DNA of 64,000 nt. It comes from Candidatus Eiseniibacteriota bacterium (lineage in GTDB: Bacteria > Eisenbacteria > RBG-16-71-46 > CAZAMP01). A program made the position numbers and the translations under genes. Location of the stretch: the NCBI GenBank assembly GCA_965224245.1, contig OZ245046.1:544001-608000 (forward strand), given 5' to 3'. Position 1 is the stretch's first letter; the number at the start of each line of letters is the position of its first letter. The notes under the pieces are model-generated. The model saw nothing but the letters and a program-made list of their open reading frames with translations. It made no database searches and was not told the origin of the DNA. This document shows positions 16,693-38,647 of this stretch, in pieces.

Positions 16693-17976
16693 TCACCTGA
16701 TCAGCGCGACCTTCTCGTCGACGTGCCCGGATGCGGTCGACACGCGAACCGTGTACACACCCGCGGACAGACGTCGCCCGCCCGCGTCGCGCCCGTCCCA
16801 CACCTGCGTCGAGGTGCCCTCGCCGACGACGCCACGGTCCAGCGTGGCGACGCGGCGGCCGCGCGCGTCATAGACGGCGAAGTCGACGATCGTGCCGGGC
16901 TCCAGGTCGGCGACGTCCAGCTCGAACCGGATCGGTGCGCCGGCCCGCGCCGGGTTCGGCGATGCGTGGAGCGCGAGGGGGGTGCCCGGGCCGACCATGC
17001 CGTCGGCGACGTCGACCACCAGGGGCTGAGGTGCGTGATACGGCGTCGCCGAGCCGCCGGTCTTGATCAGCCAACCGTCGTGAACGTGGATGTCGATCAC
17101 GGGCTGGGCGAACCACGGAAGATCGGCGGTGTAGTCGTCCCAGGTCACGTAATCGGACGTGAAGAAGATCGAGCCCGCGCCGCCGCCGTTGCTCGACGCA
17201 CCGGCGACGAGCCGGCCGTCGTCGGCGATCTCCATCGCGGTGAGGTTGTAGGTGGTCGGGACGGTCGTGATCTCGGTCCAGGTGGCACCGTAGTCGGACG
17301 AACGCCACAGCGACCCGATACCGGCTCCATGGTAGACGTCGACCAGGAGCTCGCCCTCGCGGTACACGTGCGAGGAGATCTGCGTGGCGCCGGTGGGCGT
17401 GGTGGTGCTGGTCCAGCTCGCACCGAGATCGGTCGAGCGGTGAATGTCCGAGCCCGAGATCGCGCAGAGGGCGCTGCCGGCGGTGAAGATGTCCCACGTG
17501 GCATCGCCACCCGGGAGCGCCACCTCGACCCACGTGAGGCCGGCATCGTCGGATCGACGGAGCACGCCGTCGGCGGTTCCGAAGAGCGTGTCGCCGATCA
17601 CCAGGAGCATCGACAAGGTGGCGTCCTGAAACACGATCGGCTCCCAGGGGCCCCAGACGGCGCCGTCACGCAGGGACCGGAAGTTGAGATCCTCGAACGA
17701 CGCGCGGCCCATCACGAACACGTCGCCGACGCGCGCGAGCGACTGGACGGGGGCGTAGTCGTCCGAGAACACGCTGGCGATCGCCGCCCAGCTGTCGCCG
17801 TGGTCGTCGGAGGCGTAGACCGTGCCGGAGATCGAGCCGGCGTACAGCGCCTCGGATCCCGCGTAGAACATCTGGATGTGGTCGAACGAGCCGGGCTGTG
17901 ACACCTCCGTCCACTGGGCCGACGCAACCGACGTCACGATGGCGGCGGGAATCAACGACGCAAGAACGGCACGCAT
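16693..17976 (-). CDS. Secreted BNR/Asp-box propeller protein with FlgD/T9SS-like tail
   Basis: MRAVLASLIPAAIVTSVASAQ signal with GGAGG RBS; SDDHGDSW, SDDAGLTW, STDLGASW, SSDYGATW; tail YDARGRRV..WDGRDAGG..AGVY. Confidence 0.8.
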   Translation of the reverse strand: MRAVLASLIPAAIVTSVASAQWTEVSQPGSFDHIQMFYAGSEALYAGSISGTVYASDDHGDSWAAIASVFSDDYAPVQSLARVGDVFVMGRASFEDLNFRSLRDGAVWGPWEPIVFQDATLSMLLVIGDTLFGTADGVLRRSDDAGLTWVEVALPGGDATWDIFTAGSALCAISGSDIHRSTDLGASWTSTTTPTGATQISSHVYREGELLVDVYHGAGIGSLWRSSDYGATWTEITTVPTTYNLTAMEIADDGRLVAGASSNGGGAGSIFFTSDYVTWDDYTADLPWFAQPVIDIHVHDGWLIKTGGSATPYHAPQPLVVDVADGMVGPGTPLALHASPNPARAGAPIRFELDVADLEPGTIVDFAVYDARGRRVATLDRGVVGEGTSTQVWDGRDAGGRRLSAGVYTVRVSTASGHVDEKVALIR

Positions 17977-18139
17977 GCAATCCTCCGTTTCGGATGGGGA
18001 CCTCGACGCCCGGTCGACCGCCCGCACCAGTCTAGCGGATTCGCCACACGGGCCGGGCCGTGAACCGATCGGCACGCGTCGCGTGGTGGGCCTCCTCTGC
18101 CTGGACGCGTCGGAGGTCCGGTTTGATACCGGCGCGCCT

Positions 18140-23274: not shown

Positions 23275-23480
23275 GGAGCTCTCCTGGTATCGTCCGCGGA
23301 CGGACGTGATCGACGGGGCGGGCATCGAGCGCGGCCCGGGTCCGTGTTCGGGACTGTCGTGAGAGCCGCCTCGCCACATACTGTGCGGGAACGGTACGAT
23401 GTCGGTATTGTATCGTATCCGCGGCCGGGACTGCCAGGTATGGGGTCCTCGCGAGCTCGCGCGCACCCGATGGAGGATGG

Positions 23481-26063
23481 ATGCAGGCATCATCACGATC
23501 GACATCGCATTGGTTCGAGTGCTCGGAGCTCCGCCACCTACCGACCCGCCGCGCGCGGAATCCGATCGTGGGTGTGCTGGCGATCACGATCCTCGCCGCG
23601 TCGGGCTGCGGGACTCCGGACGACCGGACCCCGACCCCGACCGTGACCGACGACGCGCACAGGCCGCACTTCACGGACGTCACGCGAGCCGCCGGGATCG
23701 ACCACACGCACTCGAAGCCGCGCCTCGATCCGAAGCTCGACAACATCATGCCGTGGGTCTCCAGCGTGGGAGCCGCCGCGGCGGCCGGCGACGTCGACGG
23801 TGACGGATGGATCGATCTCTACGTGACCACGTCTCGCAAGGGCGCCCAGAACCTCCTCTATCGGAACCAGGGCGACGGAACGTTCACGAACGTGGCGAGC
23901 ACGGCCGGCGTCGCCGACGTGAACGACGACGACGGGGTCAGCATCGACTGCATCTTCGGAGACGTCGACGACGACGGATGGACCGATCTCTACCTGGTCC
24001 GGTGGGGTCGCGACCGTCTGTTCCTGAACGACGGAGACGGCACGTTCACCGAGGTCACGCGCGAGCGCTTCACCCGGCGCGACGGCATGCCGGGCACGGA
24101 CTGGGCGAACGGGTGCGGTGCGGTCTTCCTCGACTACGATCGGGACGGCCGTCTGGACATCTACGTCGCGAACTACTTCCGCGACGTCGATCTGTGGGAT
24201 CTGACGTCGACTCGAATCATGCACGACGACTTCGAGCACTCTCGAAACGGGGGAGAGAACTTTCTCTACCACCAGGAGCCCGACGGCACGTTCCGGGAGG
24301 TCGCCTCGTCGCTGGGGATGGAGGATCCCGGCTGGACGCTCGCCGTCGGGTCCGCGGACGTCGACAACGACGGGTGGCTGGACGTCTACTGTGCGAACGA
24401 CTTCGGGCCCGACCAGCTCTTCCTCAACCAGGCGGACGGCACGTTCTCGAACGTGTCGGACGTCGCGCTCGAGTACGATACGAAGAAGGGCATGAACGTC
24501 GACTTCGGAGACGTCAACAACGACGGATGGCTCGACATCTACGTCACGAACATCACCACGGCCGAGTACCTCCGCGAGGGGAACATGCTCTGGCACAACA
24601 ACGGCCCGTCGGACGAGGCGCGCGTCGACTTCGTCGACATCGCCACCGTCTCCGACACGTACGACGGGGGCTGGGGCTGGGGCGCAAAGTTCTTCGACGC
24701 CGACAACGACGGGAGCCTCGACCTCGTGGCCGGAAACGGCTTCATCAGCGCCGGGGAAGGCGAGTACTGGTTCGAGCTGGCCTCCTGGACGGTCATCGCC
24801 GAGGATCCGGCCGACGCCGCCAACTGGCCCGCCATCGGAGAGCGCTCCTTCTCGGGGTTCGAGCCCATTCGATTCTGGCTCAATCGAGAAGGAACCTTCG
24901 TGGAGTCGGCAGCGGCCTCGGGGCTCACGACCCGACGCGACGAACGGGGCGTGGTCACGATCGACTACGACAACGACGGGGATCTGGATCTCTATCTCGC
25001 GAATCAGGGGCAGCCTCCCTGCCTGTACCGCAACGACACACCTGCCCGCCACCACTGGCTCACCGTGGCCCTCGAGGGACGGAGTGACGCGATCGGCGCG
25101 CGTGTGACCGTCGTGACGCCGGACGCCACACGCATCCGGGAGCGCGACGGAGGGAACGGCTACTCCGGTCAGAGCGATCCCCGCATTCACGTCGGGCTGG
25201 GCGAGAACGAGTTGGTCGAGCTCGTGGAGGTCCGCTGGTCGGACGGTGGGCTGCAGTACCTCGAGAATCTGCCGGTGGATCAGATCGTCACCGTCGAGCA
25301 GGATCGGGCGCGCTACGTGGCCAGCGTCCCGCGCGTCGCGGCGATGCCCGAGCGCATCGTGCTCGACACCGCCGAGTCGGAGACGCCGGCGATCGATCCC
25401 GCCGAGCTGGACGAGCTCTTGACGGAGCTCGAGACCGCCATCCGCTCGGGGGACACGACGCTCCGGACCACGAGCCTCTATCGAAACCGCTGCATCACGT
25501 ACGGCGTACACGAGCGTTCGGTGCGCTTCTTCGAGGCGCTCGTGAACGAGCACCCCGACCAGAGCCGCCATCGAGTGAACCTCGCGCTGGCCTACGTGGA
25601 CAAGATCCCGACCTGCGGTGGGGTGGCCGCGGTCGTCAGCAAGGGTACGCTGGCTCGAAAGTCGCTCGACGAGGTGACGCGTGTGATCGATCATGACGGC
25701 GGCACGTGGCTGACACACTACATCCGGGGCATGAACCATCTGCACTGGCCGCGCGCGCTCCGCCACTCCGACGATGCGGCCGCCGAGTTCGAACGCTGCC
25801 TCGAGATCCAGAGCGCGGCGTCGGATCCCCGCGATTACTTCGTACGTACGCATGTAGCACTGGGCGACGCTTATGCCAAGGATGGCCACGCCGATCGCGC
25901 GCGCGCCGTCTGGAGGGCGGCCCTCGAGCACTACCCGGACGCCGAGGCGATCTCGACGCGACTCGGGATCACCGACGACGACGCGCTGCTCGATTTCGTC
26001 GAGGACGCGCGGAGCATCGACCGTCCGATCGATACGGACATGTCGTTCGTCGAGCGGTACTGA
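23481..26063 (+). CDS. CRTAC1/ASPIC-UnbV (enediyne E4-like) FG-GAP repeat protein with C-terminal TPR domain, probable lipoprotein
   Basis: Multiple D-x-D-x-D-G-W-x-D-L-Y repeats, GWGWGAKFFDADNDG, UnbV domain AIGARVTV..GGNGYSGQSD.RIHVGLG..VRW; lipobox-like ILAASGC; helical TPR tail. Exact start uncertain. Confidence 0.85.
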   Translation: MQASSRSTSHWFECSELRHLPTRRARNPIVGVLAITILAASGCGTPDDRTPTPTVTDDAHRPHFTDVTRAAGIDHTHSKPRLDPKLDNIMPWVSSVGAAAAAGDVDGDGWIDLYVTTSRKGAQNLLYRNQGDGTFTNVASTAGVADVNDDDGVSIDCIFGDVDDDGWTDLYLVRWGRDRLFLNDGDGTFTEVTRERFTRRDGMPGTDWANGCGAVFLDYDRDGRLDIYVANYFRDVDLWDLTSTRIMHDDFEHSRNGGENFLYHQEPDGTFREVASSLGMEDPGWTLAVGSADVDNDGWLDVYCANDFGPDQLFLNQADGTFSNVSDVALEYDTKKGMNVDFGDVNNDGWLDIYVTNITTAEYLREGNMLWHNNGPSDEARVDFVDIATVSDTYDGGWGWGAKFFDADNDGSLDLVAGNGFISAGEGEYWFELASWTVIAEDPADAANWPAIGERSFSGFEPIRFWLNREGTFVESAAASGLTTRRDERGVVTIDYDNDGDLDLYLANQGQPPCLYRNDTPARHHWLTVALEGRSDAIGARVTVVTPDATRIRERDGGNGYSGQSDPRIHVGLGENELVELVEVRWSDGGLQYLENLPVDQIVTVEQDRARYVASVPRVAAMPERIVLDTAESETPAIDPAELDELLTELETAIRSGDTTLRTTSLYRNRCITYGVHERSVRFFEALVNEHPDQSRHRVNLALAYVDKIPTCGGVAAVVSKGTLARKSLDEVTRVIDHDGGTWLTHYIRGMNHLHWPRALRHSDDAAAEFERCLEIQSAASDPRDYFVRTHVALGDAYAKDGHADRARAVWRAALEHYPDAEAISTRLGITDDDALLDFVEDARSIDRPIDTDMSFVERY

Positions 26064-26379: not shown

Positions 26380-26415
26380 AAATGAAAAGGGGCGATGCCG
26401 GGGTGGCATCGCCCC
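26380..26415 (-). terminator. Rho-independent terminator of the 26438-28003 gene
   Basis: 11-bp stem GGGGCGATGCC/GGCATCGCCCC with a 5-nt loop, followed on the minus strand by TTTTCATTT. Confidence 0.85.
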
Positions 26416-26437: not shown

Positions 26438-28003
26438 CTACTTCAGCATGACCGCCTGTCGCGTCTCGACGACGTGACCGTCCACGACCAGCTCGTAGAA
26501 GTACGTTCCGGAGGCCAGGAGACGGCCGGATTCGTCGCGACCGTCCCAGTTCACCCGATGCGATCCCGCGCTCACGTGCGCGTCCACGAGCGTGCGCAGG
26601 AGGCGCCCCGTCGCGTCGTAGATGCGGATCTGCGCGGTGCCGGCGTTCTCCAGCACGAAGGGGAGCGCCGTCGAGGGGTGGAACGGGTTCGGCCGAGGCG
26701 CCAGCAGCCGCGTACCGGCGGCGACCCCGGTCTGCGGGCTGGAGAGCGGCGTCACGTCGCCGGTGCCCATGCGGACGGTGCCGACGGTGGACCCGCCCAG
26801 GCCCTCGAGAATGCTGCCCGGTGCACCCTGGAAGTCGATCCGGTAGGCGATGTCGAAGAAGCTGTCGACCTGGAAGTCGCCGCTGGGTAGCTGCGTCAGC
26901 GTCGTGTGTCCCGGGCTCGGGAGACCGAACTCGGTACCGCCGGTGATGCCGAGGAACTCGAAGTCCGGATCTCCGAACAGCTTACCCTGCAGCCGCACCA
27001 TGTCGTTGTCGAACTCCTGGACCGGGTCGCCCGGCGTCCGCGGACCGGTGTGCACCTCGCACTGGATCGGGATGATCATCGTGCGTGCGTAGCCCTCGAG
27101 GTCGCCGGTGCCGTTGAGCGTCATCGTCAGCTGCGACTGGAACTGCTCGATCTCGCCGCCCAGCGTGCCGCCCGGTGTCGCGACCACGTTGAAGAACCGG
27201 TCGTGAATCGGGTCGAACTCGATCGTCGTTCCCGGTGGAAGGCCGTCGATGATCATGTGGACCTGGTCCGGCGACAGGTACTGACAGCCGTCGGGCGGCA
27301 GGCGGACGGTACCCGTCCCGTCGTCGGCGACCACGCACGGGTTGTCGGGAGCCGGCTCGCCGCCCTGCATCCGTACGGTTCCCTCGGTCGGGCCGCCGAA
27401 GCCCTCGAGGATGCTTCCCGGCGCGCCCTGGAACTCGATCCGGTAGGCGATGTCGAAGAAGCTGTCGACGTTGAAGTTGCCGTTGGGGAGCTGCGTGAGC
27501 GTCGTCTGACCGGGGCTCGGGAGGCCGAACGACGAGCCCGCGACGATCTGGATGAAGTCGAAGTCCGGGTCGCCGAAGAGCTGGCCCTGGAGCTGCACCA
27601 TCTCGTTCGGAAACGTCTGCACGGGGTCGCCGGGCGAGCGCGGACCGGTGTGAACCTCGCACGCGATCGGGATCGCCATCGTTCGGGCAAACCCGGCCAG
27701 ATCGCCGGTTCCCGTCATCTGCATGAACAGGAACGACTGGAACTGCTCGACCTCGCCGCCGAGCGACCCGCCCGGGAATCGCACCTCGTTGAAGAACTTC
27801 GCGTGCTCGGCCGCGACGTGGATCTCGGTGCCCGCCGGGAGGTTGCCGATCATGATGTGCAGATCGTCCGGAGAGACGTATCCGCATCCGGGCGGTGGCA
27901 GGTCGACGGTCCCGGTGCCATTGTCGGGTACCTCGCACACGTCCGCTCTCGCGATCGAGCCGACCAGCGCGGCCATACATACGACGCTCCAAAGACGCGA
28001 CAT
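26438..28003 (-). CDS. Secreted protein with two tandem 200-aa repeats (VDSFFDIAYRI motif) and FlgD/T9SS-like tail; function unknown
   Basis: GGAGG RBS; signal MSRLWSVVCMAALVGSIARA; repeats C-x-V-x-D-x-GTGTV-x-LPP-x-GC..EVHTGPR..LFGDPDF..VDSFFDIAYRI at an exact 600-bp offset; tail PNPF..YDATGRLLR..WDGRDESG..SGTYFY. Confidence 0.85.
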   Translation of the reverse strand: MSRLWSVVCMAALVGSIARADVCEVPDNGTGTVDLPPPGCGYVSPDDLHIMIGNLPAGTEIHVAAEHAKFFNEVRFPGGSLGGEVEQFQSFLFMQMTGTGDLAGFARTMAIPIACEVHTGPRSPGDPVQTFPNEMVQLQGQLFGDPDFDFIQIVAGSSFGLPSPGQTTLTQLPNGNFNVDSFFDIAYRIEFQGAPGSILEGFGGPTEGTVRMQGGEPAPDNPCVVADDGTGTVRLPPDGCQYLSPDQVHMIIDGLPPGTTIEFDPIHDRFFNVVATPGGTLGGEIEQFQSQLTMTLNGTGDLEGYARTMIIPIQCEVHTGPRTPGDPVQEFDNDMVRLQGKLFGDPDFEFLGITGGTEFGLPSPGHTTLTQLPSGDFQVDSFFDIAYRIDFQGAPGSILEGLGGSTVGTVRMGTGDVTPLSSPQTGVAAGTRLLAPRPNPFHPSTALPFVLENAGTAQIRIYDATGRLLRTLVDAHVSAGSHRVNWDGRDESGRLLASGTYFYELVVDGHVVETRQAVMLK

Positions 28004-28287
28004 CGTCTAACCTCCTGCCGTCGACACCGCGCCGTTCGTCTCTCGTACGGCGAACGATCTCCGGCCAACGGTTTTGTAGGATGATGCGGGCGCATCACGC
28101 GAACGCGATTCGATCCGGTCCGAATGCCCTCGACCGGCTCGAAGGACGGCCACGATCCGAGGAAGCGGGTGACCCCAAAAAACGGCCATCGGGAAACTCT
28201 CATCGAAATGATACTGTGTTGCCCGGAAACTGGACAAGCACGTGCTGAGGATCTTGCCCCGCGAGGACCGAGATCGATGATCCTGGC

Positions 28288-30978
28288 ATGAAATCGCGCC
28301 ATGCGCCGCCGACGCGTCCACGCCCGCTCCCGTGGGGGTGGAGCCTCTCGCATCCCACGCTTATTCTCCTGTTCGTCGCGGTTGTGACCGCGTTTCTGGG
28401 AGCCGGGCTGGGTCGGCTGCGGCTGCGGACCGATGGACACGCCCTGATTCCGGCCGAGCGGGCCGAGATCGTCGAGGACGCCGAGATCCGTGAGCGGTTC
28501 GGCGTTCGGGATCCCGTGATCGTCCTGGTGCGGTCGTCGAGCCCGGAGGGGATCTACACGGTCCCGGCGCTGGCGGCGCTGGTCGAGCTCTCGGACTCGC
28601 TGTCGGCGCTGGCCGGGCCCGGGTCCGTGATGAGCCTGGCCACCGAGCGCGGCGATCGCTTCGAGCGGGGCACGCTCAGGTATCGCCGCTTTCTGTCACC
28701 ACTGCCGGCATCCGAGGGGGCGATCGACACGCTTCGCTCCGACCTGGCCGCGCTCGCCCTGCCGGTGGGGACGCTCGTCTCCGACGACGGAGCCGGCGCC
28801 GCCATCTACGTGGACGTCGATCCGGGGGCGGAGCGGAGCGCGTTCCTGGCCCGGGTCATGGACCTGGTCGCCCGACACCGCACCGAGGATCTACGGCTCG
28901 ACGTCATCGGGGCTCCGATCGCGGAGAGCCTGCTCGGGCTGCACATCCTCGCCGACCTTGGATTGCCCGGGGCGGCGCGCGCCCACGCCGACGACGTCGA
29001 CCCCGATCGGCCCGCCGCCGGGTGGGAGCGGACACGTGACGTGATCACGCGGCCCGGCCTCGTTCCGATCGCCATCGTCATCATGTTCGTCGTGTTCGTG
29101 GTCGCGTTCCGGAGTGTTCCCGCGGCAGTTCTGCCCTTGATCGAGGTGCTCGCCTGTCTGATCTCGGTGCTCGGGCTCATGGGCTGGATGGGCGTGCCGT
29201 TCTACCTGACGATCGCGCCGATGCCCGTGATCCTGACCATGATGGGGGTCGCGGACGAGGTCCATCTGTTCGCACGTCATGCGCGCCTCCGCACCGAAGA
29301 CCCCAGTGCCGACCCGAGGGAGGTCGTCGACGCCACGATGCGCGACCTCGTGCGACCGGTCGTGTGGACCTCGGTGACGACGGCGATCGGGTTCGCGTCG
29401 TTCGCGCTGTCGCCGATCGCACCGGTGCGTGCGTTCGGGGTGTTCACGGCGCTGGGCGTGATGTATTGCCTGGGATGGTCGCTTCTGGTCACGCCGGCGC
29501 TCCTCGTGCGTCTACCCGCGTCACAGGTGGGAGATCCACGGCTGCCATCGGCGCCGCTCGATCGGCTGGGTCGTCTGGTCACCGGTCACCCGAAGGCGAC
29601 GCTGGGGGTGGCCGGGCTCGTCGTGCTCCTGTCGATACCGGGACTGGTGCGGCTGAAGGTGCAGGACAGCTGGATCTCGGGCTTCTCGGAGCGGAGCCGG
29701 TTTCGATCCGCGACCGAATGGTACGACGCGCACTTCCTCGGGATGCACCGGCTCTTGATCGAGGTCCGGGGCGAGCCCGTCGACGTGGTCGGCGCGATCC
29801 CCGTAGACCGACTCGAGCGGCATCGGCTGACGCTGCCGTCCGGGAGCGTCTCCGATCCCGGGCGGCTGGTCGGCTGCCGGATCGCGCTGTCCCCGGACGG
29901 CTGGCGTCACGACGAACCCGAGCAACGCTGGGAGTCGTGGATCGTGCTCGCCGAGGAGACCGCCGACGGCCTCGTGCTGATGACGCCCCGCCGCGATGGG
30001 TCTGCGCGGATGCGCTTCGGGGATCAGCTCACGGGCGTGGTGAGATACGAGATCCGGTCGCGGACGTTCTCCTGGCACGAGCACCTCCGCCGTGTCGAGG
30101 CGTTCGAGGCGGTCGTGGCATCGCGGCGGGACGACACCGTGGGGGGCGTGATCGGCGCCGCCGCCCACGTTGCCACCGCCGACTACGTGGTGACGCGTCG
30201 CGATTCCACCGCACGCGAGGTTCCTGACGACCCCGATCGCGTGGGCTGGCTGCTAAGCCAGTACGGGCGCGTTCACGGCGAGCGCCGTCTCCGCGCCATC
30301 GTGGATCCCGACCTCGAGCGCGCGCTCGTGACCGTCTTCATGCGCGCCGCGAACTACCGGGCCACCGCGTCGTTGATGCGGGAGACCCGGGCCTACGCGC
30401 GAGAGCATCTCGAGCCCGCCGGGCTGTCGATCCGATTCGCCGGTGACGTCGCGGTGAGCCAGACGCTGATCGAGTCCATCGTCAGCACCCAGCGACGCTC
30501 TCTGGGGCTCTCGCTCGTGGGGATCCTGGTCGTGCTCGTGGGCCTGATGCGATCGCCGGTGCGCGCCGTCATGGGCGTGCTGCCATCGGCGATGGCCGTC
30601 GGCATCGGGCTGGCCATGCTGGGCGCGACCGGGCGCTCGCTCGGGGTGTCCACGTCCATGTTCGCCGGCATGACGCTCGGTGTGGGCGTCGACTTCTCCA
30701 TTCACCTGCTGGCGGCGCATGCGCGGGCGGTCGGGACCCGTGCCGAGCGGATCCGGCTCGCACTGGCCGATGCCGGTCCCGCGATGACGATCGATGCGCT
30801 GGCGGTTGCGCTCGGGTTCGGCGTGCTGTGTGTGTCGGGGGTGCCGGCCAACGTCGCGCTGGGGTCCCTGGCCCTGGTGTGCATTCTGACCTGCCTGGCC
30901 GTCACGCTCGGGGTGGTGCCGGCGCTCCTGTCCCTCGGTGCCGGCGGGAATGGACCGGAGGACGGGTCGAGCGCATAG
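28288..30978 (+). CDS. MMPL/RND-family membrane transporter
   Basis: Two halves, each with 1+5 TM segments and a large extracytoplasmic loop; GVADEVHL and GVGVDFSIHL motifs; TTAIGFASF. Confidence 0.85.
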   Translation: MKSRHAPPTRPRPLPWGWSLSHPTLILLFVAVVTAFLGAGLGRLRLRTDGHALIPAERAEIVEDAEIRERFGVRDPVIVLVRSSSPEGIYTVPALAALVELSDSLSALAGPGSVMSLATERGDRFERGTLRYRRFLSPLPASEGAIDTLRSDLAALALPVGTLVSDDGAGAAIYVDVDPGAERSAFLARVMDLVARHRTEDLRLDVIGAPIAESLLGLHILADLGLPGAARAHADDVDPDRPAAGWERTRDVITRPGLVPIAIVIMFVVFVVAFRSVPAAVLPLIEVLACLISVLGLMGWMGVPFYLTIAPMPVILTMMGVADEVHLFARHARLRTEDPSADPREVVDATMRDLVRPVVWTSVTTAIGFASFALSPIAPVRAFGVFTALGVMYCLGWSLLVTPALLVRLPASQVGDPRLPSAPLDRLGRLVTGHPKATLGVAGLVVLLSIPGLVRLKVQDSWISGFSERSRFRSATEWYDAHFLGMHRLLIEVRGEPVDVVGAIPVDRLERHRLTLPSGSVSDPGRLVGCRIALSPDGWRHDEPEQRWESWIVLAEETADGLVLMTPRRDGSARMRFGDQLTGVVRYEIRSRTFSWHEHLRRVEAFEAVVASRRDDTVGGVIGAAAHVATADYVVTRRDSTAREVPDDPDRVGWLLSQYGRVHGERRLRAIVDPDLERALVTVFMRAANYRATASLMRETRAYAREHLEPAGLSIRFAGDVAVSQTLIESIVSTQRRSLGLSLVGILVVLVGLMRSPVRAVMGVLPSAMAVGIGLAMLGATGRSLGVSTSMFAGMTLGVGVDFSIHLLAAHARAVGTRAERIRLALADAGPAMTIDALAVALGFGVLCVSGVPANVALGSLALVCILTCLAVTLGVVPALLSLGAGGNGPEDGSSA

Positions 30979-31132: not shown

Positions 31133-32101
31133 GTGAAGACGCTTCCGACGCTGCGCCGGCGGCTCTTCGGCATCTCCAGCGCCGAAGCCGAGTTCGCGCG
31201 ACGCGGTTTTGAGCCGACCACCGGCGCCAAGCAACGCGTCCTCGAGACCGCCGGCGCGACGTTCATCGAGGGATACAACCGTGCGATCGCGCACGGACGC
31301 GGCACCGGCGTGGCCGACCTTCTCTTCGACGTCGATCCGAGCCGGCTGGGGTTCGCGTTCGAAGGAGCCGCCATGGCGCTCGCACTTCTCGACCGGCTCC
31401 TGCCGTGGCGCGGCACTCGCCTCCAGACCCTGCTCGCCGGAGACGGCGATCCCCACCGGTACATGGTGTTCGTCGGTGCGGGCTGGGCGCTGGCCAGGCT
31501 GCGTCGATCGCCGCGTTCGCTTCTGGGCCTCGATCCCATTCTAGGCTGGCTCGCCGTGGACGGAATGGGATTCCACGACGCGTACTTCCACCCGGATCGG
31601 ACGATCGGCCGGGCCGAGCGGTCGGCGCGCGCGATGGGTGTCGCCGCTCACGTGTTCGACCAGGGTGTCGGACGGGCGATGTGGTTCGTGTGCGGGGCGA
31701 ACGTCACCCGGACGTCGTCGACCGTGTCGGGATTCTCGGCCGAGCGGCACGCCGATCTGTGGAGTGGGGTCGGGCTCGCGGCCACGTACGCCGGTGCGGT
31801 CGATCGTGACGAGCTCCTCGCGTTGCGCGAGGCGTCGGGAGAGCATGCCTCGCATCTCGGTCAGGGATCGGCGTTCGCCGCCAAGGCGCGGATGCGAGCC
31901 GCGAATCCGACGCCGCACGTCGACGCGGCGACCGACGTGCTCTGCGGGCTCTCGTGCGGAGCCGCTGCCGATCTGACCGACGAGGCGCTGTCGGCCACCC
32001 TCGCGATCGTCGATCGATCCGATCGTGAGGACGGCGAGCCCGCATACGAGCGGTGGCGAGCCGGGGTGAGGTCGCGCCTGGAAGCGAGTGCGAGAGTATG
32101 A
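31133..32101 (+). CDS. UnbL/DUF1702 family protein (enediyne E3/E2-like)
   Basis: F.RRGF, GFAFEGAAMAL, H.YM..VGAGWALARL, WLAVDG.GFH.AYF, DQGVGRAMWF, DLWSGVGLAATYAG, PAYERWR; GTG start with GAGGAG RBS; stop overlaps the PKS ATG. Confidence 0.9.
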   Translation: MKTLPTLRRRLFGISSAEAEFARRGFEPTTGAKQRVLETAGATFIEGYNRAIAHGRGTGVADLLFDVDPSRLGFAFEGAAMALALLDRLLPWRGTRLQTLLAGDGDPHRYMVFVGAGWALARLRRSPRSLLGLDPILGWLAVDGMGFHDAYFHPDRTIGRAERSARAMGVAAHVFDQGVGRAMWFVCGANVTRTSSTVSGFSAERHADLWSGVGLAATYAGAVDRDELLALREASGEHASHLGQGSAFAAKARMRAANPTPHVDAATDVLCGLSCGAAADLTDEALSATLAIVDRSDREDGEPAYERWRAGVRSRLEASARV

Positions 32102-35100
32102 GCCGGTCCTCGACGAGACCGCTCCAGCCCCGGGGCTCGACACCGGGCGGGGCGGCCATCGCGGTCGTGGGCATGGCCTGCCGTTACCCGGATGCGGACT
32201 CTCCTCAGGCGCTCTGGGAGAACGTCCTCGCCCAGCGCCAGTCGTTCCGGCGCATGCCGCGCGAGCGCCTGGACCTCGACGACCACTACTCCGACGACCG
32301 CGGGGCGCCCGACCGCACCTACGCCACCATGGCCGCCGTGCTGGAGGGCTATGCGTTCGATCGCGTCGCGCATCGCGTCGCCGGCTCGACCTATCGCTCG
32401 GCCGACCTGGCACACTGGCTCGCCCTGGACGTGGCGACCGATGCGCTCGCGGACGCGGGCCTGCCCGCCGGGGACGGGCTTCCGCGCGATACCACCGGCG
32501 TTCTGATCGGCAACTCCCTGACCGGCGAGTTCTCCCGCGCTGCGACGCTCCGGGTGCGGTGGCCGTACGTGAAGCGCGTGGTCGGCGCGGCACTCGCCGG
32601 CGGCGGCTGGTCGGACGAGGACGTCTCGTCGTTCCTCCGCCGGCTGGAGGTGTCGTACAAGGCTCCGTTCGCCCCCGTCGGGGACGAGACGCTCGCCGGC
32701 GGGCTCTCCAACACGATCGCCGGACGCATCTGCAACGCGTTCGACTTCAAGGGCGGTGGCTACACGGTCGACGGCGCCTGCAGCTCGTCGCTCCTGGCCA
32801 TCGCCAACGCGTGCTCGGCGCTGACGGTGGGCGACCTCGACGCGGCGATCGTGGGGGGCGTGGACCTGAGCCTGGATCCGTTCGAGATCGTCGGGTTCGC
32901 GAAGGTGGGCGCGCTCGCACCGGATCGGATGCGCGTCTACGATGCACGCTCCGCCGGATTCTGGCCGGGCGAGGGATCGGGCATGCTGGTCCTGATGCGG
33001 CTGGCGGACGCGATCGCGACCGGGCGGCGTGTCCTGGGCATCATCCGTGGCTGGGGCATCTCGTCCGACGGCACCGGCGGCATCACCCGGCCCGAGGTGG
33101 CCGGGCAGCGCCTGGCCATCGCGCGCGCCTACGCCCGTGCGGGCTACGGAATCGACACGCTCGGCTACGTCGAGGGGCACGGAACCGGAACCACGGTCGG
33201 CGACGCCACCGAGATCGACGTCCTCGGCGGCGCGCTGCGAGAGGCGGGGGCAGGGCGTCGCGTGGCCCTCGGCTCGATCAAGGCCAACATCGGGCACACG
33301 AAGGCGGCCGCCGGCGCCGCGGGCTTCCTGCGCGCGCTCCTGGCCGTGGGACACGGCATCGTGCCGCCGCACGCCGGCACACGTACGCCCCATCCGTCGC
33401 TCGAGGCCGGCGACGCGCCGCTCCGTCTTCCGAGAGAGCCGGAGGGTTGGGACGCCGCCTCGCGCCGCGCCGGCGTCAGCTCGATGGGCTTCGGCGGCAT
33501 CAACGTGCACATCACGCTGGAGGCAGACGGAAGCGACGCTCCGCGCGGGCGTCGCCTCGCGCCGCGTACCGCGCGACTCGCACGCACGCCGCAGGACGTC
33601 GAGCTGTTCGGGATCACCGCCCCGACCCGGGAGGCGCTCGGACGTCGGCTCGAGTCGCTGCGCTCGCAGTGCGAGACGCTCGCATTCTCCGAGCTACCCG
33701 ACCTTGCGGCCACGCTGGCGCGGGAAGCCGCACGGGGGCCGCACCGCGTCGCGTTGATCGCCGACTCGCCGGCCGAGCTCGCCCGCCGCATCGACGACTC
33801 GCTGGCACGGCTCTCGATGGACGGCCCGGTGGTGGACGGATCGGGTGGGCTCTTCATCGGGTCCGGACCCGCACCGCGCATCGGCTTTCTCTTTCCGGGA
33901 CAGGGCTCGCCGTCCCGGCCCGACGGCGGCTCGGTGCGCCGGCGCTTCGAGCGCGCGGCGGCCCTCTACGAGCGCGTGGGCAGAGACGGGCTGTTCCCCG
34001 CCGTCGAGGATCCCACCGACACCGCCCTGGCACAGCCGGCCATCCTCGCGGCGACGCTGGTCACGCTCGAGGTGCTGGATGCGGTCGGGGTGCGGGCACG
34101 CGCCGCGCTCGGGCACAGCCTGGGCGAGATCGCGGCGCTGGCGTGGGGGGGCGCGCTGTCGCACGAGGGTGCGCTCCGACTGTCGGCGGCGCGCGGGCGC
34201 GCAATGGCGAGCGTGCCCGGACCCGCCGGCGCGATGGCGTCGATCGCCGCGTCTCCGGAGGACGTCGCCGCGTGGCTCGCGGAGCTCGATCTCGCGGCCG
34301 GCGCCACCGGCGACGCCACGGCACCCGGAGCGGTGCCGGATCGGGGAGGCGCCGTAGGTCACGGGGTCGTCATTGCCGGCTACAATGGTCCCGCGCGAAC
34401 CGTCGTGTCCGGTCCGAGCGAGGCGGTGGACGCGTTCGTCGAGCGGGTGACCGCACGCGGCGCCACCGCCACGCGGCTTCGCGTCTCGCACGCGTTTCAT
34501 TCCGGGCTGATGGCGCCCGCGAGCACCGGCCTCGCGGCGGCCATCGCCGCCGAGTCGTGGCGGCCGTGCTCGCGCGTGGTCGTGTCCACGGTCACCGGCG
34601 ACCGCGTTCCCGAGCGTGCGGACGTCGGCGACCTGCTGCGTCGCCAGCTCACCGAGCCGGTTCGGTTCTCCGATGCCCTTTCCGTGCTCGCGCGCGACGT
34701 GGATCTCCTGATCGAGGTCGGACCCGGGACGTCGCTCGCGACCCTGGCCGCAGCGCAGGTCTCGACACCGGTGGTGGCCACCGACGGATGTGGGGATTCG
34801 CTGCGCGGACTTCTGGGCGCGATCGGTGCGGCGTGGGCGCTCGGGGCATCCGTGGATCTCGAGTCGCTCTTCGGCGACCGCGCCGTGCGGCCGTTCGATG
34901 GGCATCGTCCCCACGCGTTTCTGGCGAACCCGTGTGAGTCCGCGCCCCGACCCGGTGCGCCGGACGGGTCGCCGGTCACGCCTTCCCACGCCGGGACGCT
35001 GCCCGCGCCCGCGATTCCGGCGGCGGCGAGTCCGCCGGGACACACCGGCGGGGGGGGCGCGACGCTCGACGAACGAGTCGATGATGCCCGCGATGAAGGG

Positions 35101-38100
35101 CTGCCGGACGAGAGCGGCACGGGTCCCGCTTCGGCCCTCGACGTGGTGCGCACGCTGGTCGCCACTCGCGCCGAGCTGCCGCTCGAGTCCATCGGCGAGG
35201 ACGATCACGTGCTCGACGACCTCCGGCTCAACTCCATCGTCGTGGGTGAGATCGTCACCAACGCCGCGCGCCGCCTCGGACTCGACGCCCCGACGGCGCC
35301 GGCCGAGTTCGCCGACTCGACCGTCGGCGAGATCGCGGCCGCCCTGGCGGCGCTTCTGGAAGACGGTCCGCGCGGACGCGATCGATCGCTCGGGCTCGCG
35401 CCGGACGACGAGATCCCCGAGGGCGTCTCGACGTGGTTTCGGACCTTCGCCACCGAGTGGGTCGAGGCGCCGGCGCCCGCGAGCGCCCCGCTACCGGACG
35501 TCCGGTGGGAGGTGCTGGGGGACCCGACCGATGGGCTGGTGGCCGAGCTCACCGCGCGTCTCGGAGAGGCCGGCTCCGGCGATGCCGAGGCACCCGGTGG
35601 AACGCTCGTCGTCCTTCCGGCACGGGTGTCCGACGACGACGTCGTCGCCGCCGTGGATGCGGCCGGCGCGCACCTCGGACGCGGAGGAACGCACTTCGTT
35701 CTGGTCCAGCGCGCGGACACGCTGGCGAGCCTCGCCCGGACGCTCCACCTCGAGGACCGGCGGGTCACGACCCGCATCGTCACCGTGCCCGACGGCTCGC
35801 CCCGCTCCGCCCGCGCGATCCTGGCGGAGATCGCCGGAGACGGGCAAATCGTCGAGGCGCGCTACGAGTCCGATGGGCGCCGGGTCGTTCCCGTTCTCGG
35901 GCACGTTCCGATCGGGCGCGATGGAGCGAGCGCCGATGGGTCCGGCACGGTCGAGCCGGCCGCCGGGCTCGGTGCCGACGACGTCCTGCTCGTGACCGGC
36001 GGAGGCAAAGGCATCGCCGCCGAGTGCGCGCTCGCGATCGCCGCCAAGACCCGGACCGCGCTGCTGCTGATCGGACGCTCGGATCCGGCACACGACCCCG
36101 TGCTCGCGGGAAACCTGGCGCGGATCGCCGGCGCCGGGTGTCGCGCACACTACGCGCGCGCCGACGTCACCGACCCGGCGGCGGTCGCGAACGCGGTGGC
36201 CGAGGGAGCCCGCGTGCTCGGCCCGATCACGGGCGTCCTTCACGGGGCGGGGCGAAACGAGCCGTCGCGGATTCGCATGCTCGATCGAGACCGGGTGCTC
36301 GCGACGCTCGCCCCGAAGACGCGGGGCCTCGAGCACGTGCTCGCGTCCGTGGACCCCTCGTCGCTTCGGCTGCTGGTGACGTTCGGATCGATCATCGCCA
36401 CCGCCGGTCTGGCCGGAGAGGCCGACTATGCGATCGCCAACGAGCGCCTGGCGGCGATGACCGCGGCGTTCGGGCACGCCAATCCGACGTGTCGCTGCGT
36501 GTGTCTGGGATGGTCCATCTGGTCGGGAACCGGAATGGGAGAGCGTCTGGGCCGCGTCGAGACGCTCGCGCGTCAGGGGGTCGTTGCGATCACGCCCGAC
36601 GCCGGAGTCGACGTCCTCGGGCGTATCCTGCGAGCACCGGCGCTTCCCACGCACCTCGTGGTGACCGGCCGGTTCGGAGACCCGCCGACCGTTCGAACCG
36701 AGCCCGGCGAGCTGCCGCTCCGGCGTTTCCTGGAGCGGCCGCGTGTGCACGTCCCCGGCGTCGAGCTCGTCGCCGACGCGACCGTCGATCCCGCGCACGA
36801 TCCGTATCTGGACGACCACGTTCTCGACGGGGTCCGGGTGTTCCCCGCCGTGATGGGCCTCGAGGCGATGGCCCAGGTCGCGATGGCGCTGGCGAGGCGC
36901 GACGACCCGCCGGCCTTCCACGACGTCCGGTTCGATCGTGCCGTGACGATTCCCGAGACGGGTGCGACGTTGCGGATCGCCGCACTCGCGGACGTCGACG
37001 GCGCACACCCGGGCGCGGGTGTGATTCGTGTCGTCGTCAGGTCCTCCGAGACGTCGTACGCCGTCGATCACTTCACCGCACGCTGCCGGTTCACCGACGC
37101 GCCGCCGCCCGACGTGGATCCGATCGCGAACGGACGCCCGGCCCGGTTCGATCTCGGGGATCGTCTGTACCGCGAGATCCTGTTCCAGCGCGGTCGCTTC
37201 GCCCGCGCCGGAGGGTACGACGACGTGCAGGCGCGACGTTGCGTCGGCCGGCTCACGGCCGCGCCGCCGGTCGGCTGGTTCGGTGCGTTTCTGCCCCAGG
37301 CGCTCGTGCTGGGCGATCCCGGCCGTCGCGATGCCATGCTCCACGGGATCCAGGTCAGCGTTCCGCACCGCCGGCTGCTTCCGGTGTCGGCGACCGAGAT
37401 CGTGTTCCGGCCGTGCGGCGGCGCCGCGGAGCCCGGCGCGCCTCGGAGCGCATCGGACGCGGCGGTGTTCCGGGCGGTCGAGACCGCGCACCGGGGGGCC
37501 GACTACACCTACGACGTCGACGCCGGCGAGGAGCGCGGAGTCGTCGTCGAGTGCTGGCGCGGACTCGTCTTCCGGGCCGTGGGCCCGATACCCCTGCCCG
37601 AGACGTGGCCCCGCCCCTTGCTCGGCTCGTATCTCGAGCGGCGGATCGCCGAGACGTGGCCCGACCGCGTCTCGCACGTCGCGGTGGATCGATCCGGGAC
37701 GTCGACCGAGGACATCCTGCGCGCCGCGATCGCGGCGTCGACACACGTGCACCGGCGGCCCGACGGGAAGCCCGTGCTGTCGAACGGGACGCCGGTGGCG
37801 ATCTCGACGCACGGTCCGCTCGCGCTCGCGGTCGTCGCGGCCGATCCGGCACCGGTCGGGTGTGACGTCGAGGCGGTCGTCCCGCGTGACCGAGACGCCT
37901 GGCGGGCGCTCGTCGGGGATCGCGGCTGCGAGGTCGCGGAGCTCGTGTCCATGCGTGTCCCGGAGCCGTTCGACGCGGCGGCGACGCGCGTGTGGTGCAT
38001 CAAGGAGTCCGTGCGCAAGGCGGGGGGAACCTGGAATGAGGTGCTGAGCGTGACGTCGGTCGACGATGCCGCCTGGGTTCGCTTCAGGGCCGGATCGTTC

Positions 38101-38235
38101 CAGGTGGCGACGCTGCGCGTCGTGCTGGAGCCGGACCCGGATCTCGATGCGGGCGGCACAGGGTGCGGCGGTCCGATGATCGTCGCGGTGCTCGTCGAAG
38201 AACGCGGCTCGGAGGCGGCGCGTGAAGGCGTATGA
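32098..38235 (+). CDS. pksE: Enediyne-type iterative type I polyketide synthase (KS-AT-ACP-KR-DH-PPTase)
   Basis: KS (GNSLTGEFSRA, TVDGACSSSL, EGHGTGT, NIGHTKAAAG), AT (GHSLG, HAFH), central ACP (DDLRLNSIVVGEIV), KR (VTGGGKGI, ADYAIANE), DH (YLDDHVLDG..FPAVMGLEAMAQ), PPTase (GCDVE, WCIKESVRKA); ATG at 32098. Confidence 0.95.
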   Translation: MSRSSTRPLQPRGSTPGGAAIAVVGMACRYPDADSPQALWENVLAQRQSFRRMPRERLDLDDHYSDDRGAPDRTYATMAAVLEGYAFDRVAHRVAGSTYRSADLAHWLALDVATDALADAGLPAGDGLPRDTTGVLIGNSLTGEFSRAATLRVRWPYVKRVVGAALAGGGWSDEDVSSFLRRLEVSYKAPFAPVGDETLAGGLSNTIAGRICNAFDFKGGGYTVDGACSSSLLAIANACSALTVGDLDAAIVGGVDLSLDPFEIVGFAKVGALAPDRMRVYDARSAGFWPGEGSGMLVLMRLADAIATGRRVLGIIRGWGISSDGTGGITRPEVAGQRLAIARAYARAGYGIDTLGYVEGHGTGTTVGDATEIDVLGGALREAGAGRRVALGSIKANIGHTKAAAGAAGFLRALLAVGHGIVPPHAGTRTPHPSLEAGDAPLRLPREPEGWDAASRRAGVSSMGFGGINVHITLEADGSDAPRGRRLAPRTARLARTPQDVELFGITAPTREALGRRLESLRSQCETLAFSELPDLAATLAREAARGPHRVALIADSPAELARRIDDSLARLSMDGPVVDGSGGLFIGSGPAPRIGFLFPGQGSPSRPDGGSVRRRFERAAALYERVGRDGLFPAVEDPTDTALAQPAILAATLVTLEVLDAVGVRARAALGHSLGEIAALAWGGALSHEGALRLSAARGRAMASVPGPAGAMASIAASPEDVAAWLAELDLAAGATGDATAPGAVPDRGGAVGHGVVIAGYNGPARTVVSGPSEAVDAFVERVTARGATATRLRVSHAFHSGLMAPASTGLAAAIAAESWRPCSRVVVSTVTGDRVPERADVGDLLRRQLTEPVRFSDALSVLARDVDLLIEVGPGTSLATLAAAQVSTPVVATDGCGDSLRGLLGAIGAAWALGASVDLESLFGDRAVRPFDGHRPHAFLANPCESAPRPGAPDGSPVTPSHAGTLPAPAIPAAASPPGHTGGGGATLDERVDDARDEGLPDESGTGPASALDVVRTLVATRAELPLESIGEDDHVLDDLRLNSIVVGEIVTNAARRLGLDAPTAPAEFADSTVGEIAAALAALLEDGPRGRDRSLGLAPDDEIPEGVSTWFRTFATEWVEAPAPASAPLPDVRWEVLGDPTDGLVAELTARLGEAGSGDAEAPGGTLVVLPARVSDDDVVAAVDAAGAHLGRGGTHFVLVQRADTLASLARTLHLEDRRVTTRIVTVPDGSPRSARAILAEIAGDGQIVEARYESDGRRVVPVLGHVPIGRDGASADGSGTVEPAAGLGADDVLLVTGGGKGIAAECALAIAAKTRTALLLIGRSDPAHDPVLAGNLARIAGAGCRAHYARADVTDPAAVANAVAEGARVLGPITGVLHGAGRNEPSRIRMLDRDRVLATLAPKTRGLEHVLASVDPSSLRLLVTFGSIIATAGLAGEADYAIANERLAAMTAAFGHANPTCRCVCLGWSIWSGTGMGERLGRVETLARQGVVAITPDAGVDVLGRILRAPALPTHLVVTGRFGDPPTVRTEPGELPLRRFLERPRVHVPGVELVADATVDPAHDPYLDDHVLDGVRVFPAVMGLEAMAQVAMALARRDDPPAFHDVRFDRAVTIPETGATLRIAALADVDGAHPGAGVIRVVVRSSETSYAVDHFTARCRFTDAPPPDVDPIANGRPARFDLGDRLYREILFQRGRFARAGGYDDVQARRCVGRLTAAPPVGWFGAFLPQALVLGDPGRRDAMLHGIQVSVPHRRLLPVSATEIVFRPCGGAAEPGAPRSASDAAVFRAVETAHRGADYTYDVDAGEERGVVVECWRGLVFRAVGPIPLPETWPRPLLGSYLERRIAETWPDRVSHVAVDRSGTSTEDILRAAIAASTHVHRRPDGKPVLSNGTPVAISTHGPLALAVVAADPAPVGCDVEAVVPRDRDAWRALVGDRGCEVAELVSMRVPEPFDAAATRVWCIKESVRKAGGTWNEVLSVTSVDDAAWVRFRAGSFQVATLRVVLEPDPDLDAGGTGCGGPMIVAVLVEERGSEAAREGV

Positions 38236-38647
38236 GTACCGGCACCTCGTCGGCTTCGCGGAGACGAACGTCGTGGGGAACGTCTACTTCTCCCACCACG
38301 TCGCCTGGCAGGGGCGCTGTCGCGAGGCGTTCCTCCGCGAGCACTGTCCGTCGTTGCTCGACGAGCTCACGTCGGGGCTCGCGCTGGTCACGCTCAGCTG
38401 CCGTTGCGAGTACGTGTCCGAGGTGCTCGCGCTCGAAGAGGTGATCGTGCGCATGACCCTCGCGGAGTCGTCGCAGAACCGCGTCGCGATGCGGTTCGAC
38501 TACGTGGTCGTGCGGGATGGCACCGAGCGGATCGTGGCCCGCGGCGGGCAGGAGATCGCGTGCATGCGCCGGACCGCCGGCGGCCTCGAGGCCACGAGCG
38601 TTCCCGTCGAGCTGTCCCGGGCGCTGGAGCCGTACCGCTCGCGCTGA
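38222..38647 (+). CDS. Hotdog-fold thioesterase, enediyne E10/E7 type
   Basis: YEYRH.VGF.ETN.VGNVY...WQGRCRE.FL signature; overlaps the PKSE end. Confidence 0.92.
   Translation: MKAYEYRHLVGFAETNVVGNVYFSHHVAWQGRCREAFLREHCPSLLDELTSGLALVTLSCRCEYVSEVLALEEVIVRMTLAESSQNRVAMRFDYVVVRDGTERIVARGGQEIACMRRTAGGLEATSVPVELSRALEPYRSR

Follow-up and report, generated by a model that had tools for sequence, protein, structure and literature searches.

A predicted tandem beta-barrel protein encoded beside an MMPL exporter and an enediyne-type polyketide synthase cassette in an Eiseniibacteriota genome: a possible surface carrier for an exported hydrophobic product

The stretch of DNA analyzed here (the window) comprises 64,000 nucleotides (nt) from a Candidatus Eiseniibacteriota bacterium (GenBank assembly GCA_965224245.1, contig OZ245046.1, positions 544,001 to 608,000 of the forward strand). 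A gene on its minus strand (26438..28003), recognized by its open frame and translation, encodes P0001, a protein of 521 amino acids named REP in this study, and has a G+C fraction at third codon positions (GC3) of 0.90. REP starts with a Sec-type signal peptide, judged by eye on the translation (residues 1 to 20, MSRLWSVVCMAALVGSIARA, then DV; 27944..28003), followed by two copies of a putative beta-barrel domain, repeat 1 (residues 21 to 220; 27344..27943) and repeat 2 (residues 221 to 420; 26744..27343), and by a type IX secretion system (T9SS) type A sorting/FlgD_ig-like tail (residues ~437 to 521; 26441..26695), all encoded on the minus strand. A ribosome-binding site, AGGAGG, was read from the sequence 7 nt 5' of the ATG (28011..28016, minus strand), and a divergent spacer of 284 bp (28004 to 28287) separates REP from a gene for an exporter of the MMPL/RND family; both elements had been described in an earlier note made from this DNA and were found as described. 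Inside the spacer, a sigma-70-like promoter match (28208..28237, minus strand) fits 9 of 12 hexamer positions and is a consensus match only, with one site in the scan against a mean of 0.2 in shuffles. As for the gene's own terminator, the hairpin stands (26389..26415, minus strand, 3' of the stop codon; 11 pairs, 9 of them G-C, with a T-rich tail), and a single site of this kind turned up in the scanned region, with an average of 0.9 in shuffled sequences.

The two repeats of REP align without gaps at an offset of exactly 200 amino acids and are identical at 135 of 200 amino acid (67%) and 434 of 600 nucleotide positions. The earlier note had called them near-identical; the two 200-residue repeats are confirmed, and the near-identity is not. 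Nucleotide identities at the first, second, and third codon positions are 0.77, 0.82, and 0.58, and the low third-position value is that expected of duplicated coding sequence under selection. Self-comparison of the protein gave 143 matches at offset 200, with 42 matches at the runner-up offset, and the longest exact run at the 600-nt offset is a 35-nt repeat (26835 to 26869 and 27435 to 27469). The signal peptide (by eye), the exact 600-bp offset, the 35-nt repeat, and the FlgD-like tail reported previously were thus all reproduced. Each repeat contains the three cysteines (C3, C20, and C95) that had been described as conserved; across 210 repeat units of the family, near-invariance is limited to C3 and C20, and C95 is a cysteine in about half, so that covalent attachment at the third cysteine was dropped from consideration.

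The tail of REP matches PF13860 (FlgD_ig) at residues 452 to 504 (E value, 1.8e-11) and exceeds the cutoff of TIGR04183 (T9SS type A sorting) by a small margin (residues 438 to 513; 24.9 bits against a cutoff of 23). The same genome encodes a full-length PorU (NF033707; 469.6 bits, cutoff 420), an SprA (TIGR04189; 540 bits summed, cutoff 200), and about fifty proteins with a T9SS/FlgD_ig-type tail. Because of the sorting tail, PorU, SprA, and the many like-tailed proteins, REP is best read as a T9SS cargo that is finally attached to the cell surface, in agreement with the earlier proposal that it is secreted.

Pfam searches located the genes flanking REP, all on the plus strand, where the earlier note had placed them. 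They encode an E4-like FG-GAP/UnbV_ASPIC/TPR protein (23481..26063; PF07593, E value of 4.6e-21, with FG-GAP repeats), an HAE3-like MMPL/RND exporter (28288..30978; PF03176, with a partial TIGR00921 match), a DUF1702 protein of the E3/UnbL type (31133..32101; PF08012, E value of 2.4e-103) that is the sole copy in the genome, a type I polyketide synthase that is iterative and of the enediyne type (PKSE; 32053..38235) with Pfam domains in the order KS-AT-ACP-KR-DH-PPTase, and a hot-dog thioesterase of the E10 type (38222..38647; 4HBT_2, PF13279, E value of 1.5e-10). The locus therefore holds genes E, E10, E3, and E4 of the minimal enediyne PKSE cassette. The label "E4-like" would be weak if drawn from UnbV_ASPIC alone, because this domain has 22 matches in the REP genome; E4 homologues (43 to 46% identical) also stand beside E3 in L087 and L129 (L numbers designate compared loci, G numbers genomes, and P numbers proteins), and the E4 protein of L089 has an N-terminal anchor and is hence extracytoplasmic. 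A gene of the E5/UnbU type is absent from the locus. For comparison, a 309-amino-acid gene product with multiple transmembrane (TM) segments is encoded between E4 and the PKSE in L089 and L128, and the only match to it in the REP genome is weak (E value of 2.1e-12, 34% identity over 175 amino acids) and lies 3.9 Mb from the locus, at C1:4429995. Among the window's 19 remaining called genes, Pfam annotation revealed no tailoring, sugar, aromatic-moiety, or self-resistance gene. As listed, the PKSE begins with a GTG located inside the end of the DUF1702 gene, an overlap of 49 nt (32053 to 32101); its real start may be farther 3', or translation of the two genes may be coupled. To our knowledge, almost all known PKSE cassettes come from enediyne-producing actinomycetes. 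Three of the five conserved genes of the cassette have no known function, as stated in the available text of PMC9992847.

The repeat region of REP showed no Pfam match at an E value of ≤0.01 and no NCBIfam match, none of 144 separate repeat units matched a relevant Pfam family at an E value of ≤1, and a profile of these units (alignment A2, which includes repeat 1) matched none of the PDB chains at an E value of ≤10. Judged from these searches, the repeat is a new domain covered by no public family library. A HMMER search with repeat 2 against 1.84 billion cluster representatives (clusters at 50% identity) retrieved 1005 representatives at an E value of ≤0.001, 549 of them at ≤1e-30, in proteins with one to seven matched stretches and lengths of up to 2980 residues; a large family of about 1000 clusters is thereby defined that is missing from public libraries. 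According to record names and titles, members occur in Planctomycetota (mostly Phycisphaerae), Acidobacteriota, Eisenbacteria, "Deltaproteobacteria," Verrucomicrobiota, Krumholzibacteriia, Binatia, and other taxa, and no record title among 75 related loci names an actinomycete. In the giant surface proteins P0127, P0150, and P0239, barrel units alternate with DUF7901 (PF25470, ~205 amino acids), a domain of unassigned function, and giant proteins of this kind terminate in dockerins.

AlphaFold2 modeling of repeat 2 with the 144-unit alignment (pLDDT, 92; pTM, 0.85), which superseded a poor run with a 5-row alignment (pLDDT, 68), predicts an up-and-down barrel of eight long antiparallel strands (8 to 17 residues) after a cysteine-bridged N-terminal segment, and so bears out the suggestion of the earlier note that each repeat is a beta-barrel. 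Foldseek found no PDB match at an E value of ≤0.001, and its top entries (LmcA, nitrobindin, a haemophore, and hoefavidin) had TM-scores of 0.23 to 0.29. An exhaustive VIA-align comparison returned eight-stranded barrels throughout, headed by the outer-membrane proteins PagL (Z score, 10.7), NspA (9.6), the OprF N-domain (9.3), and OmpW (9.0), with avidins at about 8, DynF at 7.7 (rank 16), and Diels-Alderases at about 6. These matches demonstrate a barrel topology but do not demonstrate a relationship, because Z scores of 7 to 8 are a common best value. The outer-membrane barrels (PagL, NspA, OmpA/OprF N-domain, and OmpW) share long strands with the model and are its best fold matches (121 to 154 residues, root mean square deviation [rmsd] of 3.2 to 3.5 Å). 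However, the barrel of REP matches no Pfam outer-membrane protein family, it stands in tandem behind a signal peptide and before surface sorting tails, and in its strands conservation falls on the hydrophobic face and variability on the polar one. Five of the eight long strands have one face that is clearly more conserved and more hydrophobic; one such face, FVSFIYIFG, has an entropy of 0.21, and in the strand EIEQFQSQLTMTLNG the face EEFSLMLG has an entropy of 1.24 against 3.14 for the opposite polar face, IQQQTTN. In view of this pattern, the tandem architecture, and the surface sorting tails, the repeat is probably a soluble barrel with a hydrophobic interior, as read from the model and the conservation. 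The conserved cysteine pair, the tandem copies, and the surface anchors fit an extracytoplasmic soluble domain. Conservation and architecture together led to the rejection of a membrane-embedded barrel.

Seven polar residues (R87, Q109, D125, D127, D160, D164, and Y167) are invariant or nearly so across the 210 units. Such a set of Asp, Arg, Gln, and Tyr residues might belong to an extracytoplasmic enzyme that performs a cyclization, pericyclic, or oxidative step on an exported polyketide. Eight-stranded barrel enzymes are among the fold matches, including PagL (Z score, 10.7), the Diels-Alderases Cyc15, PyrI4, AbnU, and PloI4 (5.7 to 6.3), and pyocyanin demethylase (6.3), and periplasmic chemistry would be plausible given an extracytoplasmic E4. 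However, these matches fall within the common range for barrels and none is outstanding, repetition up to sevenfold within one chain, or tethering by every type of anchor, is rare for enzymes, and the Asp-rich motifs GDPDF and VDSFFD could equally be candidate calcium sites of an extracellular domain. An enzymatic role for the barrel is therefore considered unlikely.

The genomic setting of the family was analyzed in the best 75 of 377 matching stretches from species-representative genomes (1.07 Mb), which were searched with the window proteins (tblastn). An MMPL homologue was present in 17 of the 75 related loci, always immediately adjacent to the barrel gene; twelve homologues were 39 to 47% identical over all or most of the available length, and five were 28 to 30% identical. 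Full-length PKSEs occurred in five loci (L012, L041, L047, L060, and L070; 44 to 49% identity), a PKSE-type DUF1702 gene in four, a thioesterase homologue in three (L041, L047, and L070, 3' of the PKSE in each), an E4 homologue in three, and a distant DUF1702 gene with discrete ketosynthase (KS) genes in four (L020, L021, L031, and L035). An all-against-all clustering of every called gene in the 75 loci, made with no preselection, ranked MMPL first among the neighbors (16 loci plus the window), followed by DUF1702 (6 plus the window) and PKSE (5 plus the window). The MMPL exporter, not the PKSE, is the closest and most constant partner of the barrel. All 18 MMPL homologues in the 1.07 Mb adjoin a barrel gene, within ~650 bp, and the two genes are arranged divergently, codirectionally, or convergently.

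Linkage could be judged at 41 of the 75 loci, the flanks of the other 34 being too short; with "unlinked" defined as at least 6 kb on both sides without such a neighbor, 22 loci were linked and 19 were unlinked. At least seven phylum-level labels appear in the record titles of the linked loci. On a tree of the 210 repeat units, the linked state requires 20 changes, compared with a mean of 31 after shuffling (1 of 500 shuffles was as low). A single specialized clade of MMPL-linked barrels was refuted, since well-supported branches alone force at least 6 of these changes. A third conserved barrel context is seen in Sedimentisphaerales and Pirellulales (L057, L064, L077, L051, L075, and L076). 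There the gene directly upstream of the barrel gene, on the other strand, is Peptidase_C39-like, and the vicinity also encodes an HD-domain protein, a phosphatase of the PP2C type, a Ser/Thr kinase, and a response regulator of the LuxR type.

The pathway-linked barrels end in different ways. T9SS/FlgD_ig tails are found in the window, L012, and L070; IPTL-CTERM tails scoring over the cutoff in L020 and L078; hydrophobic-plus-arginine (TM+Arg) tails in L019, L036, L040, and L060; a "TWGxVKxLY" tail in L041 (twice) and L048; a "DGFESGD..W" tail in L039, L050, and L061; and dockerin-like tails in L007 and L022. In some loci, two single-barrel genes in tandem replace one two-barrel gene. The varied tails and the tandem single-barrel genes therefore suggest that the barrel is the payload and that the tether is supplied by each lineage. 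A fixed stoichiometry of two barrels per locus was dropped, as linked loci carry from one to many barrels. In having one extracellular domain with alternative C-terminal sorting signals, the barrel is like the "choice-of-anchor" domains (e.g., TIGR04312), and because no NCBIfam model matches it, it would be a new domain of that behavioral class. A choice-of-anchor B protein is encoded by the next gene but one from REP in the window.

At the level of whole genomes, DUF1702 was found in 32 of the 41 genomes with a judged barrel locus, that is, in 18 of the 22 linked genomes (not in L019, L045, L058, and L078) and in 14 of the 19 unlinked ones (not in L037, L057, L069, L073, and L077). The base rates were ~2%: 5 of 206 genomes in the phylum of REP and 8 of 401 evenly sampled Planctomycetota genomes. 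When the genome at the center of each comparison was left out, a barrel was present in 3 of 4 DUF1702 genomes versus 34 of 201 others in the own phylum (Fisher's exact test, P = 0.019) and in 2 of 7 versus 4 of 393 in the Planctomycetota sample (P = 0.0038), P values that overstate independence because the genomes are related metagenome-assembled genomes. In the genomes counted as unlinked, DUF1702 stands beside KS genes (L130, L131, L132, L134, and L136), beside an MMPL 43 to 45% identical to that of the window (L133 and L135), or in a PKSE cassette with an MMPL (L137). The DUF1702 hit of G624 and the barrel gene of L015 have almost the same coordinates, but they belong to different contigs and do not overlap. 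Barrel, MMPL, DUF1702, and synthase are thus adjacent to one another pairwise in changing combinations, which is the usual signature of one functional system. Enrichment with PKSE/UnbL genes, which the earlier note had named beforehand as the refuting test, favored the link, within limits (32 of 41 genomes against a base rate of ~2%, and an MMPL at 17 of 75 loci).

The barrel might instead be a generic surface or adhesion module, functionally unrelated to the pathway and brought next to it in shared islands of envelope genes. The family does occur in broad contexts, and other T9SS cargo genes abound in the window (7552 to 11706, 16693 to 18075, and 20509 to 23505). Nevertheless, adjacency of all 18 MMPL homologues to a barrel gene, its survival through three gene orientations and several phyla, and the excess of DUF1702 in barrel genomes over the base rates argue against chance neighborhood, and this explanation is regarded as quite improbable.

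The likely product was considered from gene content. The distant DUF1702 genes (89 to 132 bits) are accompanied by two or three KS genes (L020:11071-15074, L021:15398-20223, L031:2662-9134, and L035:3006-8185), by acyl carrier protein (ACP) genes in L031 and L035, and by a FabA gene in L031. Clusters of this make-up apparently form a second, undescribed type. Further settings of DUF1702 with KS genes are those of L130, L131, L132, L134, and L136, and this type of cluster sometimes adjoins the same MMPL clade (L133 and L135) or LolA_like and FtsX/MacB genes (L021). Because the locus has no E5 and no Pfam-recognized tailoring or resistance gene, and because the barrel and MMPL are also found at discrete-KS clusters, the product of the window cassette is more likely a polyene- or polyyne-type lipid than a finished enediyne.

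The earlier note had proposed REP as a candidate polyketide carrier or apoprotein, and in its specific form this reading makes REP the stabilizing apoprotein of a nine-membered enediyne. Nine-membered enediynes are stabilized by apoproteins, and those of the neocarzinostatin/CagA type are secreted, encoded in PKSE clusters, and sequester the labile product. They are small Ig-like sandwiches of ~110 amino acids. REP would share its secretion with them, the genes for PKSE, thioesterase, E3, and E4 are present, and a barrel gene is linked to a PKSE in five of the 75 loci. The barrel, by contrast, has eight strands and ~200 amino acids, and neither the REP repeat nor any of the 144 units has a Pfam match to apoprotein families, which upholds the part of the earlier proposal that declared the sequence unrelated to neocarzinostatin-type apoproteins. 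No neocarzinostatin-type entry is among the 50 fold matches listed, which does not exclude one. The remote, weak E5-type match, the lack of Pfam-recognized tailoring, sugar, aromatic-moiety, and self-resistance genes, the barrels at KS/ACP/FabA clusters without a PKSE, and the absence of actinomycetes from the record titles of the 75 loci leave the apoprotein proposal unsupported by the locus and make it very unlikely.

The best-supported reading, put forward tentatively and not as a settled function, is that REP is a surface-anchored extracytoplasmic carrier for a hydrophobic polyene-type product exported by the MMPL protein. Fold class, secretion signals, synteny, and co-occurrence are shown by the analyses above; ligand binding and product identity are inferred. 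From the established chemistry of PKSEs and their thioesterases, PKSE and thioesterase would make a linear polyene, which may be modified by E3 (DUF1702) and E4. The MMPL/RND pump, judging from its family and synteny, would move the product out of the inner membrane, and the barrel could house it in a conserved hydrophobic interior, with uptake taking place in the periplasm ahead of T9SS passage or at the cell surface. The sorting tail, one of several lineage-specific anchors seen in the sequences, would keep the barrel at the envelope, and the outcome would be a lipid-protein (chromoprotein) complex displayed on the surface. As T9SS cargo folds in the periplasm before it passes the outer membrane, loading could occur there, which would explain how the product crosses the outer membrane. 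Complex prediction for MMPL (residues 20 to 815, 12-row alignment) and the barrel (144-row alignment) gave values of 0.00 and 0.01 against a mark of 0.32 in an uncontrolled run that counts neither way.

The closest functional analogue of barrel plus MMPL appears to be the export module of aryl-polyene clusters, in which ApeM (RND), ApeL (LolA-like), and ApeN (LolB-like) form a dedicated route for a polyene lipid that is proposed to be shielded by the module and delivered to the outer envelope, according to the available text of PMC8253772. The Ape module, as described there, and the window are alike in that an RND exporter stands beside an extracytoplasmic beta-rich protein next to a polyene synthase. 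A further likeness is the LolA_like gene (PF17131; E value of 3.1e-26) found directly 3' of the barrel gene in L021, a position that a cluster-mate also takes in L010. Unlike ApeL, however, the barrel is not of the LolA family (neither P0001 nor any of the 144 units matches a LolA-type Pfam model); it is closed, eight-stranded, often repeated, and surface anchored, and the synthase is an iterative type I PKSE instead of a type II system. A second comparison is with DynF of the dynemicin cluster (PDB 6ubl), an eight-stranded barrel encoded in a PKSE cluster, crystallized with palmitate inside it, and proposed to bind the PKSE heptaene, as given in the available text of PMC8725005. DynF aligns with the barrel model over 125 residues (Z score of 7.7, a value common to small barrels; rmsd of 3.1 Å; 13% identity). 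It shows no sequence relation to the A2 profile (PDB search, E value of ≤10) and ranks 16th, below outer-membrane barrels and avidins; REP is secreted and tandem, whereas the available text of PMC8725005 makes no mention of a signal sequence for DynF. By analogy, REP may, on a tentative view, resemble both DynF and the Ape module of RND and LolA-like proteins in function.

Several observations weigh against a carrier dedicated to the pathway. Among the 38 barrel-positive genomes of the own phylum (including the unpublished G072), 34 lack DUF1702, as do 4 of the 7 barrel-positive Planctomycetota, and at 20 further own-phylum barrel loci neither MMPL nor PKSE was nearby (0 of 20). Five PKSE loci are present in the own phylum; those of G000, G046, and G132 have both barrel and MMPL, and those of G160 and G161 have neither within 10 kb, with the barrel of G161 on another contig and no barrel in the genome of G160. 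Only two (G046 and G132) of the eight PKSE-type loci found through DUF1702 and not through the barrel (G046, G132, G160, G161, G298, G212, G233, and G631) have a barrel within ~10 kb. In Planctomycetota, no barrel was seen in the stretches examined around the PKSE loci of G298 (where the stretch begins at a contig end) and G233 (which has a barrel-MMPL pair on another contig) or around the E3-UnbV-MMPL locus of G212, where 14 kb were examined and held no PKSE. The REP genome itself encodes a paralogue, P0116 (G000:C1:315435-316631, corresponding to L005:10250-11947, plus strand), of 534 amino acids with two barrels, 61% identity, and the same FlgD_ig tail, 255 kb from REP. Its gene directly follows one for a multihaem c-type cytochrome, with a pyridoxal phosphate (PLP) decarboxylase, a MarR protein, and other T9SS cargo encoded near and neither a synthase nor an MMPL in its surroundings. 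Barrel units also recur, with as many as seven copies per chain, in proteins reaching 2980 amino acids, alongside dockerin and DUF7901 domains, and linked barrels are clustered on the tree without forming one clade. The invariant polar residues are identical in linked and unlinked members; the set points to a shared site (for metal, catalysis, or structure), not to a plain greasy pocket, and the modeled interior is so conserved and aromatic that its own side chains could fill it. The proposed role of DynF was, moreover, not confirmed by coexpression, according to the available text of PMC8725005. On the whole, barrel and pathway are strongly associated in the window-like part of the family, and the link is facultative.

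Some of these observations would suit a reversal of roles, in which DUF1702/PKS and MMPL build a lipid of the outer layer and the barrel docks onto this exported lipid as a receptor or anchor serving surface proteins, giant ones included. The presence of barrels in very large multimodule surface proteins, the constancy of the polar site across contexts, and the occurrence of DUF1702 in 14 of 19 genomes whose barrel gene lies away from the pathway agree with such docking, and MMPL adjacency fits it as well as it fits a carrier. However, most members carry a dedicated anchor (T9SS C-terminal domain, IPTL-CTERM, or TM+Arg), beside which a second seems redundant, and 34 of the 38 barrel-positive own-phylum genomes lack DUF1702. 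Docking onto an outer-layer lipid is hence held to be doubtful.

The carrier reading has also a wider form, in which the barrels would fill the place of a missing extracytoplasmic component in a widespread, undescribed DUF1702 (E3) pathway outside actinomycetes. They would be loaded in the periplasm with the MMPL-exported polyene or polyyne and pass as folded holoprotein to the cell surface by way of the T9SS or another sorting system particular to the lineage. This extension is rather unlikely; if true, it would mean a new class of surface chromoproteins and a new outer-membrane route for a reactive hydrophobic polyketide. Irrespective of it, in Planctomycetota, Acidobacteriota, Eisenbacteria, and further little-studied phyla, E3 (DUF1702) travels with the MMPL and a new secreted barrel, and the MMPL and the barrel partner E3 both with a PKSE and with discrete KS/ACP genes. 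These associations offer a handle on the products of nonactinomycete cassettes, on the exit of a labile hydrophobic product from a diderm cell, and on its retention at the surface. The literature search, from which subscription journals and preprint supplements lay outside, found no paper joining PKSE, MMPL, and DUF1702 or describing the barrel domain; in the open literature, nothing relevant was found on enediynes in these phyla, including UnbV/UnbL in Planctomycetes.

Other genes of the window also encode secreted-looking proteins. P0261 (39858 to 40574, minus strand; 238 amino acids) has no Pfam match and a C-terminal end of ...SSWGSIKALYDH, and a tail of its "WGxVKxLY" type is also found at the end of single-barrel proteins in L041 (twice) and L048. 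P0249 has a stretch of this type near its C terminus, followed by an acidic tail. The "WGxVKxLY" tail may be a new C-terminal sorting motif. Among the T9SS cargo genes of the window, that at 7552 to 11706 (plus strand) encodes a gingipain-like Peptidase_C25 protein of 1384 amino acids with BNR repeats and a FlgD_ig tail, and the genes downstream of it specify a sigma factor of the ECF type and a Ser/Thr kinase that has STAND/TPR domains. The gene at 20509 to 23505 (minus strand) encodes the choice-of-anchor B/LVIVD protein (TIGR04312; E value of 2.2e-90), which has a FlgD_ig tail. A homologue in L020 is 42% identical, carries an IPTL-CTERM tail, and is encoded just after the KS genes, and another in L048 is 32% identical; the choice-of-anchor B/LVIVD protein may be a further recurrent member of the system.

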